Positions 31,246 through 37,634 of a DNA stretch of 61,990 bases are shown here, piece by piece. Origin of the DNA: a virus; the UHGV virus genome UHGV-0106586. One strand, written 5' to 3'. Made by a program: the position numbers and the translations under genes. Numbering within the stretch: the stretch's first letter is position 1; each line of letters starts with the position of its first letter. The notes under the pieces were generated by a model. The model was not told where the DNA came from. It ran no database searches and worked only from the letters and a program-made list of their open reading frames with translations.

Positions 31246-31502
31246 GTAAGCCTCTTTTAAGTAACTATTAAGTTTTAATCTTTTATCTTAACGTATTCTA
31301 TACGTTATACTTTAAAGCTTTTTAAAAGCTATTAAATAATCTTTTAAGAGTTTTAAAGTATCTGTATAGTTAAACTGTTAAGTAACCTTTTAAGTAAAAA
31401 CCCACTTCGCAAAGATTAACACCTTGTCAAGTGCATTGTCAACTTGCTTTTTATAATTTTTTGCAGTAATGTATGAGGTTAATGATTTTAGAGGGAGTAA
31501 AA
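31246..31502. promoter_or_regulatory. AT-rich divergent control region between minus-strand and plus-strand gene blocks; palindromes (ctttaaag, gctttttaaaagc); candidate promoters and/or replication origin
   Basis: Strand switch at this point; TTGTCA and TATAAT hexamers present but spacing imperfect; palindromes seen directly. Confidence 0.4.
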
Positions 31503-34202
31503 ATGGAAAACGTAGATTTTAAAAACTTACATTTAGTTGGTGATACAGAAACTGATGGTTTACTCCTTGAGTTTACTAAAGTGCACGTAATGGCTTTCGC
31601 AGACTATAAATCTGACGATGAAGAGCCACCTGTATGGGTCTTTACAGATGAACCTATCCTCGGTCACAAGTATACCAAGTACATTAAGGGTGGTTTACGT
31701 GAAGGTGTTGAATTTGCGTTAAAGGCAAAACGTCTTTGCATCCATAACGGTCTCGGTTATGACTGGTGGGTTTTCAATCACATTGCACCCGATTTGTGGA
31801 ACTTTGATAATCCAAAGTGTAAGCCGTGGAGTAATTTCTTTCAGGATTCTCTTATCCAGTCTCGTGTTCAGTGGATGGATAGACCAACTCCAAAGGGCTA
31901 TAAAGGTGCTCATGGCTTGGCAGCATGGGGTGCTCGTGTGGGTGTCCGTAAACCAGAGATTGAACATTGGGGTGTGTGGAATGCAGAAATCTTCACTCGT
32001 GTTGTGGAAGATATCCGTATTAACGCCAAAACTAAACGTGCATTGGATAATGAATATCTGAAGCTTAAGAAGTGTGGTATAGACACTTATGAAACCTACA
32101 TGCGAGCTAAAGAGACATCTTTCTGGATGAGTCAACAGGCTATCAATGGTTGGAAAGCTGATAAAGAGCTTATGGAGTTCCATGTAAAGGAACTTGACAA
32201 GTTGACTAATGAGCTTGCTTCAGAAGTTGAACCACATCTTCCTCCAACTATTAAAACCAAAGGTAAAGTCACTGGAGAAGAATTTGCAAAAGCTTGGAAT
32301 GAGTATGTTGAAGCGTTTGGTCATGCAGATGGTCTGAAGAGAATTACCAAGTACCCTAAGACAAAGTATCGTCAACAGGTACGCAACGGTGAGATGCAGA
32401 CATATGAAATCAAGCCATTTGGTAAGCCAACTACAAAGATTTTTAACATTGAAAAGCGGAATTGCTATACACCAACCAACTCTGTAACTGGCGAAGAGTA
32501 CAAGGAAGGCTTTGTAGCAATGAAGGATGCTCGTGCAATTTGCAATGAGTTGAATGCAAAGATTGGTAAGAAGTGCAAAGACTGGAAGCCAGTAAAAACA
32601 GTTAAAACTGTGAAGTACTATAACAGCCATGTTGTTAACCACTTTAAGCTTGAGTCAAGTCGCTACACAGGTTTGATTGATGCACCATATACACCAATTG
32701 AGTTCGAAGTTTCTCGTATGACTCAGGTAGCAGTTGTTAAAGACTACTTGAAATCAGTTGGTTGGATTCCAGATGACTGGAACTATAAGAAAGACTCTGA
32801 TGGTCGTCCTGTTAAGGTTTGTCGCTTCAAAGACAACAAAAAGATGATTACAAAACATCCTAAGTGGGATGAGATGGTGGAACGGTGTGGTTTGAGTTAT
32901 GTTGAACATGAAGGTGTCCAGTACATTGAACATAACTGGTCTGTGAAGAAGTACACAGATTTGCTTGAGCCTTGCTTAATCCGTACTTCACCAAAACTTA
33001 CTGAATCATCTTATGATACGATTGAAGGTGAGCTTGGACAGAAGATTGCTAAGTACTATACTTTGATGCACCGACGCAGAACTATTGAGAACTCAAAGGA
33101 TGATGAAAAAGGTTGGTTGAACCAGATTCGTCCAGATGGTCGCCTTAGTGCTGGTGCAATGGTATTTGGTACTTCAACTGGACGTATGACACAATATGGT
33201 ATTGTAAACGTACCGTCTGGTGCTGCTGTCTATGGAGCACCTATGCGGGAAGTTTGGACTTGTGAAGAAGGTACAGATATCATCTCTGTAGACCAAAACT
33301 CAGCACAGCTAGTTCTTCTTTGTAACTTTATGGGTGATGAAGAGTTCACTAAAGCGGTAACTGAAGGTAAAGAGTCAGTAGAATTTACCAAGCAAGAGGA
33401 TGGGAGATACTATTGCAAGCATCTTGATAAGTACCTCAATCCAGAAACTGATAAGTATCTTCGTTATGATGCTGAGAATGACCTCTACGAAGTCTACACA
33501 GGTACTGATGCACATACACTGAATAGTATTTACTTTGGTCTGAACAAGGAAGAAGATATTGTTCGTTGTAGGGAAACACAGGATGAGGAACTTCTCCACG
33601 AGATTACAAAAGGTCGTAAGAAGGCCAAGAATGGCATCTACGCCCTGTTATTTGGAGCCGGAGACGAGAAGTTTGCAAAAACTATCAAGGCATCATCTAC
33701 GGAAGAAGGTGCATTGACTAAACAAACTTACTTTGTGCGTCTACCTAAGATTAAAAAGCTGCTTGACAGGTTAGAGGAAGACTTCAAAGCAACTAAGAAG
33801 GCACTTGAAGAGGTTTTTGGAAAAACTTCTGCAATTGCCAAAGGTGGTTATATCAAAGTCGCTGGAGCGTGGTTATGGTGTAAATCTCCACATAAGTTAT
33901 TGAATTTCACACTCATGGGTAGTGAGGCGCAGGTACAGAATGAGGGGATTAACTTGGCTAATAGAGAGTTAACAGAGCGAAAACTTACAGTTCTAAATGG
34001 TAGGAAACCAGCTATTGGTGCTAGATGGGTCTGTAGTTACCACGACGAAGTTTCTTTAGAGGTTCCAACAAAAGCTGTACCAGATGTTAAGGAGATTATT
34101 GATAGAATGTATGGTCAAGCATCAAAAAATCTTGGATTAAAGAGTAAGACGCTTGTTACAGGCACTGGTAAGGTAGGTAAGACATGGTACGCCGTACACT
34201 AA
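31503..34202 (+). CDS. DNA polymerase, family A (T7 gp5-like) with 3'-5' exonuclease domain
   Basis: N-terminal LVGDTETDG exo I motif; C-terminus ...YAVH as in Pol I family; ATG 31503 preferred (GAGGGAG RBS) over track start 31473. Confidence 0.85.
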   Translation: MENVDFKNLHLVGDTETDGLLLEFTKVHVMAFADYKSDDEEPPVWVFTDEPILGHKYTKYIKGGLREGVEFALKAKRLCIHNGLGYDWWVFNHIAPDLWNFDNPKCKPWSNFFQDSLIQSRVQWMDRPTPKGYKGAHGLAAWGARVGVRKPEIEHWGVWNAEIFTRVVEDIRINAKTKRALDNEYLKLKKCGIDTYETYMRAKETSFWMSQQAINGWKADKELMEFHVKELDKLTNELASEVEPHLPPTIKTKGKVTGEEFAKAWNEYVEAFGHADGLKRITKYPKTKYRQQVRNGEMQTYEIKPFGKPTTKIFNIEKRNCYTPTNSVTGEEYKEGFVAMKDARAICNELNAKIGKKCKDWKPVKTVKTVKYYNSHVVNHFKLESSRYTGLIDAPYTPIEFEVSRMTQVAVVKDYLKSVGWIPDDWNYKKDSDGRPVKVCRFKDNKKMITKHPKWDEMVERCGLSYVEHEGVQYIEHNWSVKKYTDLLEPCLIRTSPKLTESSYDTIEGELGQKIAKYYTLMHRRRTIENSKDDEKGWLNQIRPDGRLSAGAMVFGTSTGRMTQYGIVNVPSGAAVYGAPMREVWTCEEGTDIISVDQNSAQLVLLCNFMGDEEFTKAVTEGKESVEFTKQEDGRYYCKHLDKYLNPETDKYLRYDAENDLYEVYTGTDAHTLNSIYFGLNKEEDIVRCRETQDEELLHEITKGRKKAKNGIYALLFGAGDEKFAKTIKASSTEEGALTKQTYFVRLPKIKKLLDRLEEDFKATKKALEEVFGKTSAIAKGGYIKVAGAWLWCKSPHKLLNFTLMGSEAQVQNEGINLANRELTERKLTVLNGRKPAIGARWVCSYHDEVSLEVPTKAVPDVKEIIDRMYGQASKNLGLKSKTLVTGTGKVGKTWYAVH

Positions 34203-34687
34203 CACTTCAAGACTACAAGGATAATTTTATTTATGACCCCGACAAAGGGGTCTTCTACAACAAGTATGACAGGAATAGGCAAGCTAAAGCTGGGCAGATT
34301 GCAGGAGGAAGTGATGCTTATGGTTACAAAGTACTTAAATTCAAAGATGTCGTAATAAAAGTTCATCACCTCGTTTGGTGGTTCGAGCATGGTTACAAGC
34401 CCACTAAGATGATAGACCACATTGATGGTAACAGAAGTAATAATCATATCTCTAATCTTAGGGAGACTGATAAGTATGGAAACGCCCAAAACAGAGTTAA
34501 GCAGACAGCTAACAAGTCAGGTTACAAGGGTGTGCATTATTTTAAAGACTGCAATAAATGGAGGGCTGCTATAACATGCAGAGGTAAAAGGACATCACTT
34601 GGCTTATTTGACACACCAGAAGAAGCCCATAAAGCTTACTGTGAAGCTGCTATTAAACTCCACGGAGAGTTTGCAAAACTAAGTTGA
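34184..34687 (+). CDS. HNH endonuclease with AP2 domain (free-standing, overlapping the 3' end of the polymerase gene)
   Basis: KVHHLVWWFEHGYKP...IDHIDGNRSNNHISNLRE plus AP2-like SGYKGVHYFKDCNKWRAAI...GLFDTPEEAHKAY. Confidence 0.75.
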   Translation: MVRRTLTLQDYKDNFIYDPDKGVFYNKYDRNRQAKAGQIAGGSDAYGYKVLKFKDVVIKVHHLVWWFEHGYKPTKMIDHIDGNRSNNHISNLRETDKYGNAQNRVKQTANKSGYKGVHYFKDCNKWRAAITCRGKRTSLGLFDTPEEAHKAYCEAAIKLHGEFAKLS

Positions 34688-35174: not shown

Positions 35175-35330
35175 ATGAAACGCAAAGTAAAATTCTTTAG
35201 TTTGTATGGAAGAGTCGGTAAAGGTTTTGATTGGCAACTTCTACGTTCAGATGTTAAAAGCAACGAGTTAGCACAGCTTATTATAAACTATCGACGAACG
35301 TACAGAGAAGTAGAACATCGTGAACAGTAA
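35175..35330 (+). CDS. small hypothetical protein (51 aa), below track cutoff
   Basis: Hand-translated MKRKVKFFSLYGRVGKGFDWQLLRSDVKSNELAQLIINYRRTYREVEHREQ; GGAGA RBS. Confidence 0.3.
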   Translation: MKRKVKFFSLYGRVGKGFDWQLLRSDVKSNELAQLIINYRRTYREVEHREQ

Positions 35331-35343
35331 TAGGAGAAGTATT

Positions 35344-35580
35344 ATGTGGAAAGCAGTAATTGTGCTTAGTGTTATCCTTCTATCTGGCTGTAATCCCTCT
35401 TACGAGGACAAAAATGCTTCTTATAGCCTCCCACCAGAGATGCAAGATTGCAAAGTCTATAAGTTACATGGTGATGCCATAAGCAGAGATATTGTTGTTG
35501 TCAGATGTCCAAACTCTCAAACAACAACATCTTATAGCTATGGAAAAAATGGTCAATCACACACTACTGTTATTGAGTGA
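35344..35580 (+). CDS. small lipoprotein (78 aa), early region
   Basis: Signal MWKAVIVLSVILLSGC with lipobox LSGC; ATG with AGGAGA RBS. Confidence 0.5.
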   Translation: MWKAVIVLSVILLSGCNPSYEDKNASYSLPPEMQDCKVYKLHGDAISRDIVVVRCPNSQTTTSYSYGKNGQSHTTVIE

Positions 35581-35590
35581 GGTGTTCAAG

Positions 35591-35797
35591 ATGGAAGTCC
35601 TAGTAAACTATATCTACTGTTATGATGTTGTTCACTCCACTACAACCGTAGCTCAACGTAACCCAATCGTCCCACGAGAAGGTGAGTTGGTTCGAATCGA
35701 GGGTTGGACTTACACTGTGGAAAGCATCATTCATAAGTTTGATGTTGCTGGTGATGTTCAAGTTATTGATGTAGAGATTGGTGGTAAGAGAAAATGA
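35591..35797 (+). CDS. hypothetical protein (68 aa from ATG 35591)
   Basis: ATG with GAGG RBS. Confidence 0.4.
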   Translation: MEVLVNYIYCYDVVHSTTTVAQRNPIVPREGELVRIEGWTYTVESIIHKFDVAGDVQVIDVEIGGKRK

Positions 35798-35979
35798 AAA
35801 CAGAACCTGTAAAAACTGAAGACGGAAACATTGAGACATTCTCAATCACAGTCGCTGGTGATGAGTTCTCTTGCAAATGTGGGTGTAACTGCTTTCATAA
35901 ACCAGATAAAACAAAACTTGGTCTTTATGAATGTAATAGCTGTGGGTTGAGGTTCTTAGACAAAAGCAAGGATATGTGA
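35794..35979 (+). CDS. small zinc-ribbon protein, paralog A
   Basis: FSCKCGCNCFHKPDK...YECNSCG; paralogous to ORF 36307..36498. Confidence 0.45.
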   Translation: MKTEPVKTEDGNIETFSITVAGDEFSCKCGCNCFHKPDKTKLGLYECNSCGLRFLDKSKDM

Positions 35980-36227
35980 TGAAGATAACTCAAGAAATGA
36001 AGAAGTTGTATGAGAGAAGTGTGAAGATTCCACCAAGAACTGATGCAAAGAAATTACTATTCAACTCTTGGATGAATGATTGCACGTATGAGCAATACTA
36101 CTTTAAAGTAATAGCATCAGGCGAAAGACCAGAATCACCTGAATTTTATGATATTTACATAAAGGAGCAAGATGAAAAATGTTTAGATTTCTACGAAAAA
36201 TACATGGAAGTTATAAATTCAATTTAA
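35976..36227 (+). CDS. hypothetical protein (83 aa)
   Basis: ORF in track. Confidence 0.4.
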   Translation: MMKITQEMKKLYERSVKIPPRTDAKKLLFNSWMNDCTYEQYYFKVIASGERPESPEFYDIYIKEQDEKCLDFYEKYMEVINSI

Positions 36228-36306
36228 TTATCAAAGAAGACTTTGGTGGACATGCTTGGCACTCCTTCTACTCAAAAGGCTCCATAGATTGTGAGGCAAG
36301 AGATAA

Positions 36307-36498
36307 ATGAACAAAGAAGATAAGCATAAAAATGCTGTACGTACTCCTGATGGAAAGGTTCAATCCTTCATCCTGACAGTTGGTGGAAAGACGTTTCGTT
36401 GCCACTGCGGAGCAAACTGTTTTCATAAACCAGATAAAAATGACCTAGAGCTTTACGCATGTAATGCTTGCAATACTTGGTATCACTCAGAGGAATAA
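36307..36498 (+). CDS. small zinc-ribbon protein, paralog B
   Basis: FRCHCGANCFHKPDK...YACNACN; paralogous to ORF 35794..35979. Confidence 0.45.
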   Translation: MNKEDKHKNAVRTPDGKVQSFILTVGGKTFRCHCGANCFHKPDKNDLELYACNACNTWYHSEE

Positions 36499-36499
36499 A

Positions 36500-37600
36500 A
36501 TGACAATTCTATACAAACAAAATAAAGATGGCTCTTTTAACGTCTGGTCATGCGTTGCTGTAGGCGACAAAGTTATTACAACCTACGGTAAAGAAAATGG
36601 CAAGATGATGTTTGAAGAGTATACAGCAGAACCTAAAAACATCGGTAAAAAGAATGAGCGTAACGCTGAACAGCAAGCTCTCTTTGAAGTTGCTGCTAAG
36701 TATAAAAAGCAAGTTGACCGTAAAGGTTATGCTTACACAAAAGAGTCTGCACAGAATACTGAGAAGGTAGGTGTACAACTTGCTCATGATGCTGCAAAGG
36801 TTAGTCATGCAAAGTATTTGATATTCCCTGCTGATGCTCAACCAAAACTTGATGGTGTTCGTTGTAGAATTTCAAGAGATGCTGATTCAGTTAGCTTCAC
36901 GGCCTATTCTCGTGAGAATACTGTTTACAACGTCCCAGCAGAACTAATCCCAGATTTACTTTTGTTGCTTAAATTGCATCCACAAGTCGAAGACTTTGAT
37001 GGTGAGATTTATGCTCACGGTTGGGACTTAGAAGATATTGTGTCTATGATTAAGAATGCTGACAATCCAGAACGCCACCTTCTTAAATTCTACTGGTATG
37101 ATATCTGTGACAATTCAAAAACTTGGCCTGAGCGTCGTGAAGTTATTGATAACTCACCCATTATTGAGCTTGGTGATACCTGTAGAGTTGTTCCTGTACA
37201 GACTATCCGTGTTAACTCTTGGGAAGAGTTTGATGAAGCTCATGATAAGTGGGTTGAAGCTAAGTTTGAAGGTGCAATGTACCGTTCAATCTCTGAAGAC
37301 TCCTTCTATGAGTGTTGTCACCGTTCATACTTCTTGATTAAGCACAAGAAGATGCACACTGAAGAGTTTAAAGTGACTGGTGTAAAGACTGATAAGCGTG
37401 GTCATGGCAAGTTCGTTGTAGAGACTCTTCCTAACGTCTTTGTAGATGTCTCATGGAAGACTACTCATGAGAAGAAACAGTATCTTGCTGAGCATCCTGA
37501 AGAGTTTATCGGGAAACCTTTAACGGTTCAGTTCCAGAAGATGACTCGTAAGGGGTCTTTACAGTTTCCTGTTGGTTTAGTTATTCGAGATTACGAATAA
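36500..37600 (+). CDS. ATP-dependent DNA ligase
   Basis: KLDGVRC adenylation motif I (KxDG); size ~366 aa; ATG 36500 with AGGA RBS. Confidence 0.75.
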   Translation: MTILYKQNKDGSFNVWSCVAVGDKVITTYGKENGKMMFEEYTAEPKNIGKKNERNAEQQALFEVAAKYKKQVDRKGYAYTKESAQNTEKVGVQLAHDAAKVSHAKYLIFPADAQPKLDGVRCRISRDADSVSFTAYSRENTVYNVPAELIPDLLLLLKLHPQVEDFDGEIYAHGWDLEDIVSMIKNADNPERHLLKFYWYDICDNSKTWPERREVIDNSPIIELGDTCRVVPVQTIRVNSWEEFDEAHDKWVEAKFEGAMYRSISEDSFYECCHRSYFLIKHKKMHTEEFKVTGVKTDKRGHGKFVVETLPNVFVDVSWKTTHEKKQYLAEHPEEFIGKPLTVQFQKMTRKGSLQFPVGLVIRDYE

Positions 37601-37606
37601 AAGTTG

Positions 37607-37634
37607 TTGACATAGATAATTTGGTGAGTATACT
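37607..37634 (+). promoter_or_regulatory. sigma70-like promoter (-35 TTGACA 37607-37612, 16-bp spacer, -10 TATACT 37629-37634) overlapped by an 8-bp inverted repeat (37623-37630 / 37655-37662)
   Basis: Hexamers and dyad read directly. Confidence 0.5.

Follow-up and report, generated by a model that had tools for sequence, protein, structure and literature searches.

The window analysed here, i.e., the whole 61,990-nucleotide stretch of UHGV virus genome UHGV-0106586, comes from a Felixounavirus (Felix O1-like myovirus, Ounavirinae) and carries two small, related genes, here called ZR1 and ZR2, on either side of a third ORF (Table 1). The initial annotation regarded them as duplicated zinc-ribbon genes of an early region, of the kind that serves host takeover or anti-defence. 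The locus raises the question of whether the two genes arose from one another in place or came to lie together by recombination, and of what proteins of this size may do there. The 2.7-kb region around the pair is matched by 260 phage records at 80–99% identity.

The homology of the two genes is well supported. Both ORFs are found on the plus strand where the initial annotation had placed them, and the core that it quoted, F-x-C-x-C-G-x-N-C-F-H-K-P-D-K...Y-x-C-N-x-C, is exact in both, reading F25-S-C-K-C-G-C-N-C-F-H-K-P-D-K39...Y45-E-C-N-S-C50 in ZR1 and F30-R-C-H-C-G-A-N-C-F-H-K-P-D-K44...Y50-A-C-N-A-C55 in ZR2. The proposed relationship is confirmed by alignment statistics, as 26 of 49 amino acids are identical without gaps (53%; BLASTP E=6e-21) and the ungapped BLOSUM62 score is 163 compared to 24.3 +/- 4.6 (maximum 48) in 2000 shuffles. 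It is also confirmed by a common family, PHROG 5768, which both proteins match over their full length (HMM E=2.8e-29 for residues 2–60 of ZR1, E=3.1e-40 for residues 1–63 of ZR2) and which has no functional annotation. The ORF between them was correctly described as unrelated; it belongs to another family, phrog_32421, and its product is acidic. Neither the two ZR proteins nor the middle ORF matched anything in Pfam (E<=1), NCBIfam, or PADLOC, a PADLOC scan of five longer ZR homologues gave no match, and a PDB sequence-profile search with the ZR proteins returned nothing but C2H2 knuckles of the YxCxxCG type, which are spurious matches. Nothing relevant was found in the literature on Felixounavirus, zinc ribbons, and anti-defence.

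Table 1. Features of the window in and around the polymerase-to-ligase block.
Feature	Position	Strand	Size	Remarks
Family-A DNA polymerase	31473–34202	+		Opens the co-directional block
HNH-AP2 homing endonuclease	34184–34687	+		Overlaps the 3' end of the DNA polymerase gene
Predicted lipoprotein	35320–35580			Probable start ~35344 (MWKAVIV...LSGC)
phrog_4427 gene	35591–35797	+	68 aa	phrog_4427, E=4.8e-46; conserved; borders the variable slot on the left
ZR1	35794–35979	+	61 aa	phrog_5768; predicted Cys4 zinc ribbon; allele c-y
ZR1 core, codons G30–K39 (GCNCFHKPDK)	35881–35910	+	30 nt	Likely crossover point between N-half and C-half
Middle ORF	35979–36227	+	82 aa from ATG 35979 or 83 aa from GTG 35976	phrog_32421, E=1.3e-44
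43-aa ORF	36179–36310		43 aa	Overlaps the end of the middle ORF and the spacer
Spacer	36228–36306	+	79 nt	3' end is the second conserved junction, GAGGCAAGAGATAAATGA
ZR2	36307–36498	+	63 aa	phrog_5768; predicted Cys4 zinc ribbon; allele a-x
ATP-dependent DNA ligase	36500–37600	+	366 aa from ATG 36500	Conserved; borders the variable slot on the right
Sigma-70-like site	37607–37634			TTGACA-16-TATACT, 11/12

As the ORFs are very short and the gene is missing from many relatives, one or both of them might be non-functional, non-expressed remnants, which is extremely unlikely. Both genes are under purifying selection, with a dN/dS of 0.13 for ZR1 against its phiSUSP1 orthologue and of 0.03–0.13 for ZR2 against seven orthologues (one low-divergence pair, with L018, gives 0.36); the frames are intact in dozens of genomes, and hundreds of clusters show no variation in the key residues. 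The ZR genes are moreover tightly coupled to their neighbours, the stop codon of the phrog_4427 gene overlapping the ZR1 start as ATGA and the ZR1 stop overlapping the start of the middle ORF as TGATG, and they are preceded by a Shine-Dalgarno-like AAGAGA. A ZR2 that is 100% identical to that of the window is encoded on IMG/VR contig IMGVR_UViG_3300029816_000002 (L011).

The early host-takeover region in which the initial annotation had placed the pair could not be recognised. Both genes lie in a plus-strand block in the order polymerase, HNH-AP2 endonuclease, six small ORFs, ZR1, the middle (83-aa) ORF, ZR2, and ligase, i.e., in a replication module, and no promoter- or terminator-like site above shuffle background was found from polymerase to ligase, including between ZR1 and ZR2. 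The ligase matches Pfam DNA_ligase_A_M above the curated cut-off (E=9.1e-8) and DNA_ligase_OB_2 below it (E=2.4e-4). ZR2 ends 1 nt before the ATG start codon of the ligase gene, whose Shine-Dalgarno sequence, GAGGA, is located inside the 3' end of ZR2. The sigma-70-like site directly after the ligase stop codon probably starts the next transcription unit.

Several smaller observations were made in this block. The 79-nt spacer was considered as a possible RNA element or attenuator and this was ruled out, as the spacer has no stable fold (z=+0.98) and matches no Rfam family; the one chance match, to mir-122 (E=0.64), lay elsewhere. The 43-aa ORF, whose end overlaps ZR2 as ATGA, occurs intact and in similar form in phage L27 but lacks a start codon in DE17; its conservation may be at the nucleotide level only, i.e., that of the junction and the ribosome-binding site. 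The endonuclease gene encodes HNH_3 and AP2 domains and overlaps the 3' end of the polymerase gene. It has a counterpart in phiSUSP1, EC106, and L27 and none at that position in DE17 and EF202P1, and this pattern of presence and absence among relatives identifies it as a variable mobile insertion. The small predicted lipoprotein carries an LSGC lipobox in its signal peptide, matches phrog_902 and, weakly, Rz-like spanins, and might act in superinfection exclusion or in the envelope.

How did two homologous genes come to lie in one slot? The initial annotation suggested diversification by duplication, i.e., local tandem duplication of a putative host-takeover or anti-defence gene followed by an arms race. 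In agreement with this, the ZR gene is accessory and present in about 70% of relatives, the family occurs in early and accessory regions of other phages and prophages, single members are fused to Lar and Tad2-like domains, and two diverged copies are kept under purifying selection. On the other hand, the copies are only 60% identical at the DNA level with a pS of 0.62, i.e., the synonymous sites are saturated, and they do not behave as recent tandem duplicates, the closest relative of each being a single-copy gene in other phages. ZR1 is 90% identical in amino acids to the single-copy gene of phiSUSP1, EC106, and PC79-13, which lies directly before the ligase in all three phages; for phiSUSP1 and EC106, where the gene occupies the same slot, the nucleotide identity is 88%. 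ZR2 is 98% identical to its homologues in EF202P1, DE17, EC6, and others and is the counterpart of the single ZR gene in EF202P1 and most Felixounaviruses. In addition, ZR1 is closer to proteins of Klebsiella and Aeromonas phages (~60–64% identity in global alignments, 69–73% by tblastn) than to ZR2 (53%), and a neighbour-joining tree, built from a short alignment and without bootstrap, groups it with phiSUSP1, Klebsiella phage FKP3 (Justusliebigvirus), and Aeromonas phage phiA050, and ZR2 with the Felix O1 type. With dN/dS values of 0.03–0.13 there is no sign of diversifying selection, neither PADLOC nor any known anti-defence family is matched, and the gene block is a replication module. Taken together, local duplication with an ensuing arms race is an unlikely explanation. 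For a putative takeover or anti-defence role as such there are indirect hints, namely the patchy occurrence of the gene, its place in the PL-type early operon of Pseudomonas prophages, and the single fusions to Lar, Tad2-like, Nudix, and MazG-like domains.

As each copy has its own single-copy counterpart and the synonymous sites are saturated, the pair is best regarded as old alleles stacked by recombination and not as the product of a local duplication. The explanation that we favour, with some reserve, is therefore that ZR1 and ZR2 are anciently diverged phrog_5768 alleles that were brought together by cassette exchange among related phages. Ordinary mosaic recombination would thus have produced a new combination of members of a catalogued phage family: a phiSUSP1-type ZR1 together with a Felix-type ZR2, as in the window, was not found among 50,697 phage records, and the ZR1 of other two-copy phages is only 63–67% identical to that of the window.

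The exchange would have taken place in a hypervariable slot of Felix O1-like phages, bordered by the phrog_4427 gene, which is found in 211 phage records at >=90% nucleotide identity, and the DNA ligase gene, which is present in 260. The Escherichia phages phiSUSP1 (ZR protein ALH47071.1) and EC106 (ZR protein URO83523.1) and the phages of EF202P1/Felix O1 type carry their ZR gene in this same slot as one copy, whereas the window has both, parted by the phrog_32421 ORF, which is present in only 12 phage records. The slot exists in at least four layouts of cassettes. Layout A, in EF202P1, consists of a 55-aa ORF and a ZR2-type gene; in layout B, in phiSUSP1 and EC106, a ZR1-type gene stands alone, directly 5' of the ligase; layout C, with the 83-aa ORF between two ZR genes, is that of the window, DE17, KEP2, EC6, BPS17W1, BPS17S6, BPS15S6, and pSJ21; and layout D, in phage L27, has the 83-aa ORF alone without ZR. 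Two ZR places, i.e., layout C, occur in about 10 of 241 records.

Compared to EF202P1 the window is 99.5% identical in nucleotides up to position 35799 and 94% identical from 36305 onwards, with an unrelated stretch (35800–36304) in between, and compared to phiSUSP1 and EC106 it matches over 35591–35982 and then again from 36499. The left junction, GGTGGTAAGAGAAAATGA, which in the window is the boundary between the phrog_4427 gene and ZR1, is identical in five architectures. The second junction is located 5' of ZR2 in the window and in DE17, and 5' of the ligase start in L27. As these junction sequences are common to the layouts, it follows that cassettes are exchanged at the start/stop (ATGA) overlaps of the genes.

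A second level of exchange is seen within the gene. The 30-nt core is the only stretch of ZR1 with about 80% nucleotide identity to ZR2, the sliding identity between the two genes peaking at 0.83 in the core and being about 0.55 elsewhere. Three types of N-half (a, b, and c) and two types of C-half (x and y) are found in the combinations a-x, b-x, b-y, c-y, and c-x. A metagenomic protein of 58 aa (P0003) is a chimera of a ZR1 N-half and a ZR2 C-half, and the ZR1 genes of DE17 (L001 2297–2500) and KEP2 (L010 1296–1499) likewise combine halves of different alleles; in all these natural chimeras the joint lies exactly at NCFHKPD, which demonstrates recombination between alleles inside the gene. 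The combinations, including that of P0003, show that N- and C-halves are shuffled and point to crossover at the conserved core.

The position of ZR2 immediately before the ligase suggests another role, namely that of a ligase accessory factor (e.g., a nick- or DNA-end-sensing zinc finger) translationally coupled to the downstream gene. A ZR gene is located directly 5' of the ligase in both Felixounavirus and Suspvirus with its stop codon 0–1 nt from the ligase start, the ligase Shine-Dalgarno sequence is within ZR2, a ligase gene is found 2–4 genes from ZR in two unrelated metagenomic phages (L047, one of 26 other viral loci inspected, and L053, found separately by contig look-up), and several GenBank records name the small protein "DNA ligase." However, that name has been transferred between entries (e.g., "DNA ligase [Salmonella phage BPS17W1]") and the proteins so named have no ligase domain; judged by the features of an ATP-dependent ligase, i.e., a KxDG nucleotidyltransferase and an OB domain, neither ZR1 nor ZR2 matches a ligase domain of Pfam at E<=1. 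A fusion to a ligase is present in none of the top 150 family members, and ZR is apart from the ligase in Kolesnikvirus, Justusliebigvirus, phiA050, Pseudomonas prophages, and 24 of the 26 other loci. Phage L27 lacks ZR although its ligase is closely similar, and about 80 of 260 ligase-carrying relatives (~30%) are likewise without it. A function as ligase cofactor is very unlikely, and the idea was rejected on the basis of L27, the ZR-less relatives, and the non-syntenic homologues.

The same comparison shows that the ZR gene is dispensable. Any form of it is found in only about 179 records with enterobacterial names compared to the 260 with the ligase, and when records are sorted by name the numbers go from 120 with ligase to 88 with ZR for Escherichia, 23 to 3 for Shigella, and 11 to 0 for Citrobacter. 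As relatives with this ligase can do without ZR, the gene is accessory and not an obligate partner of the ligase.

The family to which the two proteins belong, in its stand-alone form a predicted Cys4 zinc ribbon of about 55 aa, is large. An initial word-indexed homologue search found only 5 proteins, and an exhaustive profile search was needed, which at 50% identity gave 495 clusters with a threshold of E<=1e-3 and 109 with one of E<=1e-10; a word-indexed profile search gave 677 clusters at 90% identity. Members are found in phages of Enterobacteria, Pseudomonas, Aeromonas, and actinobacteria as well as in prophages. The extension to actinobacteriophages is seen from Microbacterium phage Tempo gp57 (L005 1537–3444), in which the ribbon is part of a protein of 635 aa whose N-terminal region is Cas4/exonuclease-like, and Gordonia phage Boopy gp31 (L006 2842–3153), in which it forms the C-terminus of a 103-aa protein. 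The N-terminus of Boopy gp31 has a CxxC pair (KCGDCG) that may belong to another zinc site. The genomic settings are diverse: the ZR gene is found between NrdA.1-like and RegB-like/PseT genes in Kolesnikvirus, after a DNA methyltransferase gene in Klebsiella phage FKP3, and in the cI-proximal (PL-type) early operon upstream of ERF/RecT-YqaJ-SSB in Pseudomonas prophages, and its neighbours at the 26 other viral loci include SSB (3), YqaJ (2), ERF (2), HNH (2), and dCMP deaminase (2).

The family consensus is PVxxxDGxLENFxLKVxGKxFRCxCGCNVFHKPDxxDLxLYECNxCGxxYEGE. In ZR2 numbering, C32, C34, N37, C52, and C55 are invariant and F39, H40, P42, and N53 near-invariant, and the four cysteines C32, C34, C52, and C55 are present in 151–153 of 154 domains. 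The actinophage homologues are without Cys38 and His40 (same numbering), and it follows from this loss of the third Cys and the His that the ligand set is CxC...CxxC. Going by these two conserved Cys-pair knuckles, CxC and CxxC, the ZR domain probably belongs to the Cys4 zinc ribbon class. Its nearest structural neighbours, which are weak, are the ribbons of TFS4, TFIIS, and Rpb9. These neighbours, together with a conserved basic patch, GK-x-FRC...HK, beside the first knuckle and the location of the ZR genes inside an operon, would agree with a TFIIS/TFS4-like regulator that binds nucleic acid or RNA polymerase and tunes transcription or translation of the replication block, a role comparable to that of Com and Ogr, which are small zinc-finger regulators of phages. 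Such a function is improbable. The domains are mostly acidic to neutral, with a median pI of 6.3 and 70% below pI 7, which favours protein binding over nonspecific binding to nucleic acid.

Longer homologues exist as well, and all 88 that were tested match phrog_5768. An N-terminal extension of at least 35 aa is present in 71 of the 154 best family matches, and these extensions are nearly all mutually unrelated. No recurrent N-terminal partner domain was found among the longer homologues, the identified partners all being singletons: a MazG-like dATP/dGTP pyrophosphohydrolase, NUDIX, Lar, Tad2-like, RyR, and DUF2934. Both the Lar and the MazG-like fusion were found again, on IMG/VR contigs of 331 kb and 178 kb. 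Lar (PF14354) is likewise a small phage Cys4 ribbon of early and accessory regions, but it does not match ZR1 or ZR2 at E<=1, and in the fusions it forms a separate N-terminal domain, followed C-terminally by the phrog_5768 ribbon in one branch of the family (P0013, L026).

Taken as a whole, the comparisons show a small conserved domain, probably clamped by zinc, which phages can do without, pass on horizontally, exchange as a cassette, and attach time and again to unrelated accessory or enzymatic domains. It is conceivable, as a tentative proposal from these comparisons, that the ZR domain is stabilised by zinc and serves to dock onto a conserved macromolecule of DNA metabolism or of the early phase of infection. 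A protein would be a likelier target than bare nucleic acid. At this target the free ZR proteins of 60 aa would act as small modulators or competitors, and two diverged copies, as in the window, might widen or duplicate the docking specificity. It is tempting to go further and regard the phrog_5768 ribbon as a widespread phage docking domain without a Pfam model that brings diverse effectors, which would include the MazG-like and Nudix hydrolases, Lar, Tad2-like and RyR domains, and the Cas4-like nuclease, to one conserved host or replisome target. This broader idea is speculative and unlikely to hold as it stands. If it were true, a lone ribbon would block or modulate the target, and the family would be a new type of module for host takeover or counter-defence, with ZR1 and ZR2 as two specificities.

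The ZR pair itself is of little import and reflects ordinary phage mosaicism. It is, on the other hand, a clean example of tiny accessory genes that are shuffled as cassettes, both at the junctions between genes and at a conserved core inside the gene. The family, with about 500 clusters at 50% identity and no Pfam model, also serves as C-terminal module of unrelated accessory proteins, and since it is large and recurrent, a single binding-partner result could annotate hundreds of phage genes.

The survey also brought to light a propagating misannotation of 60-aa proteins. Many GenBank records carry the label "DNA ligase" on ZR homologues of 60–70 aa without a ligase domain, e.g., in DE17 (WAX24963.1; L001 2297–2500), Erwinia phage Rouille (WJN64857.1; L003 2998–3201), and Salmonella phage GSP193 (P0232), and the error appears to have spread from the entry of Salmonella phage BPS17W1. 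Finally, two entries named Campylobacter phage A126 and A132 (MG065668.1 and MG065664.1) contain Felixounavirus-like sequence with a homologue of the 83-aa ORF and the ligase, which suggests that they are mislabelled or contaminated.
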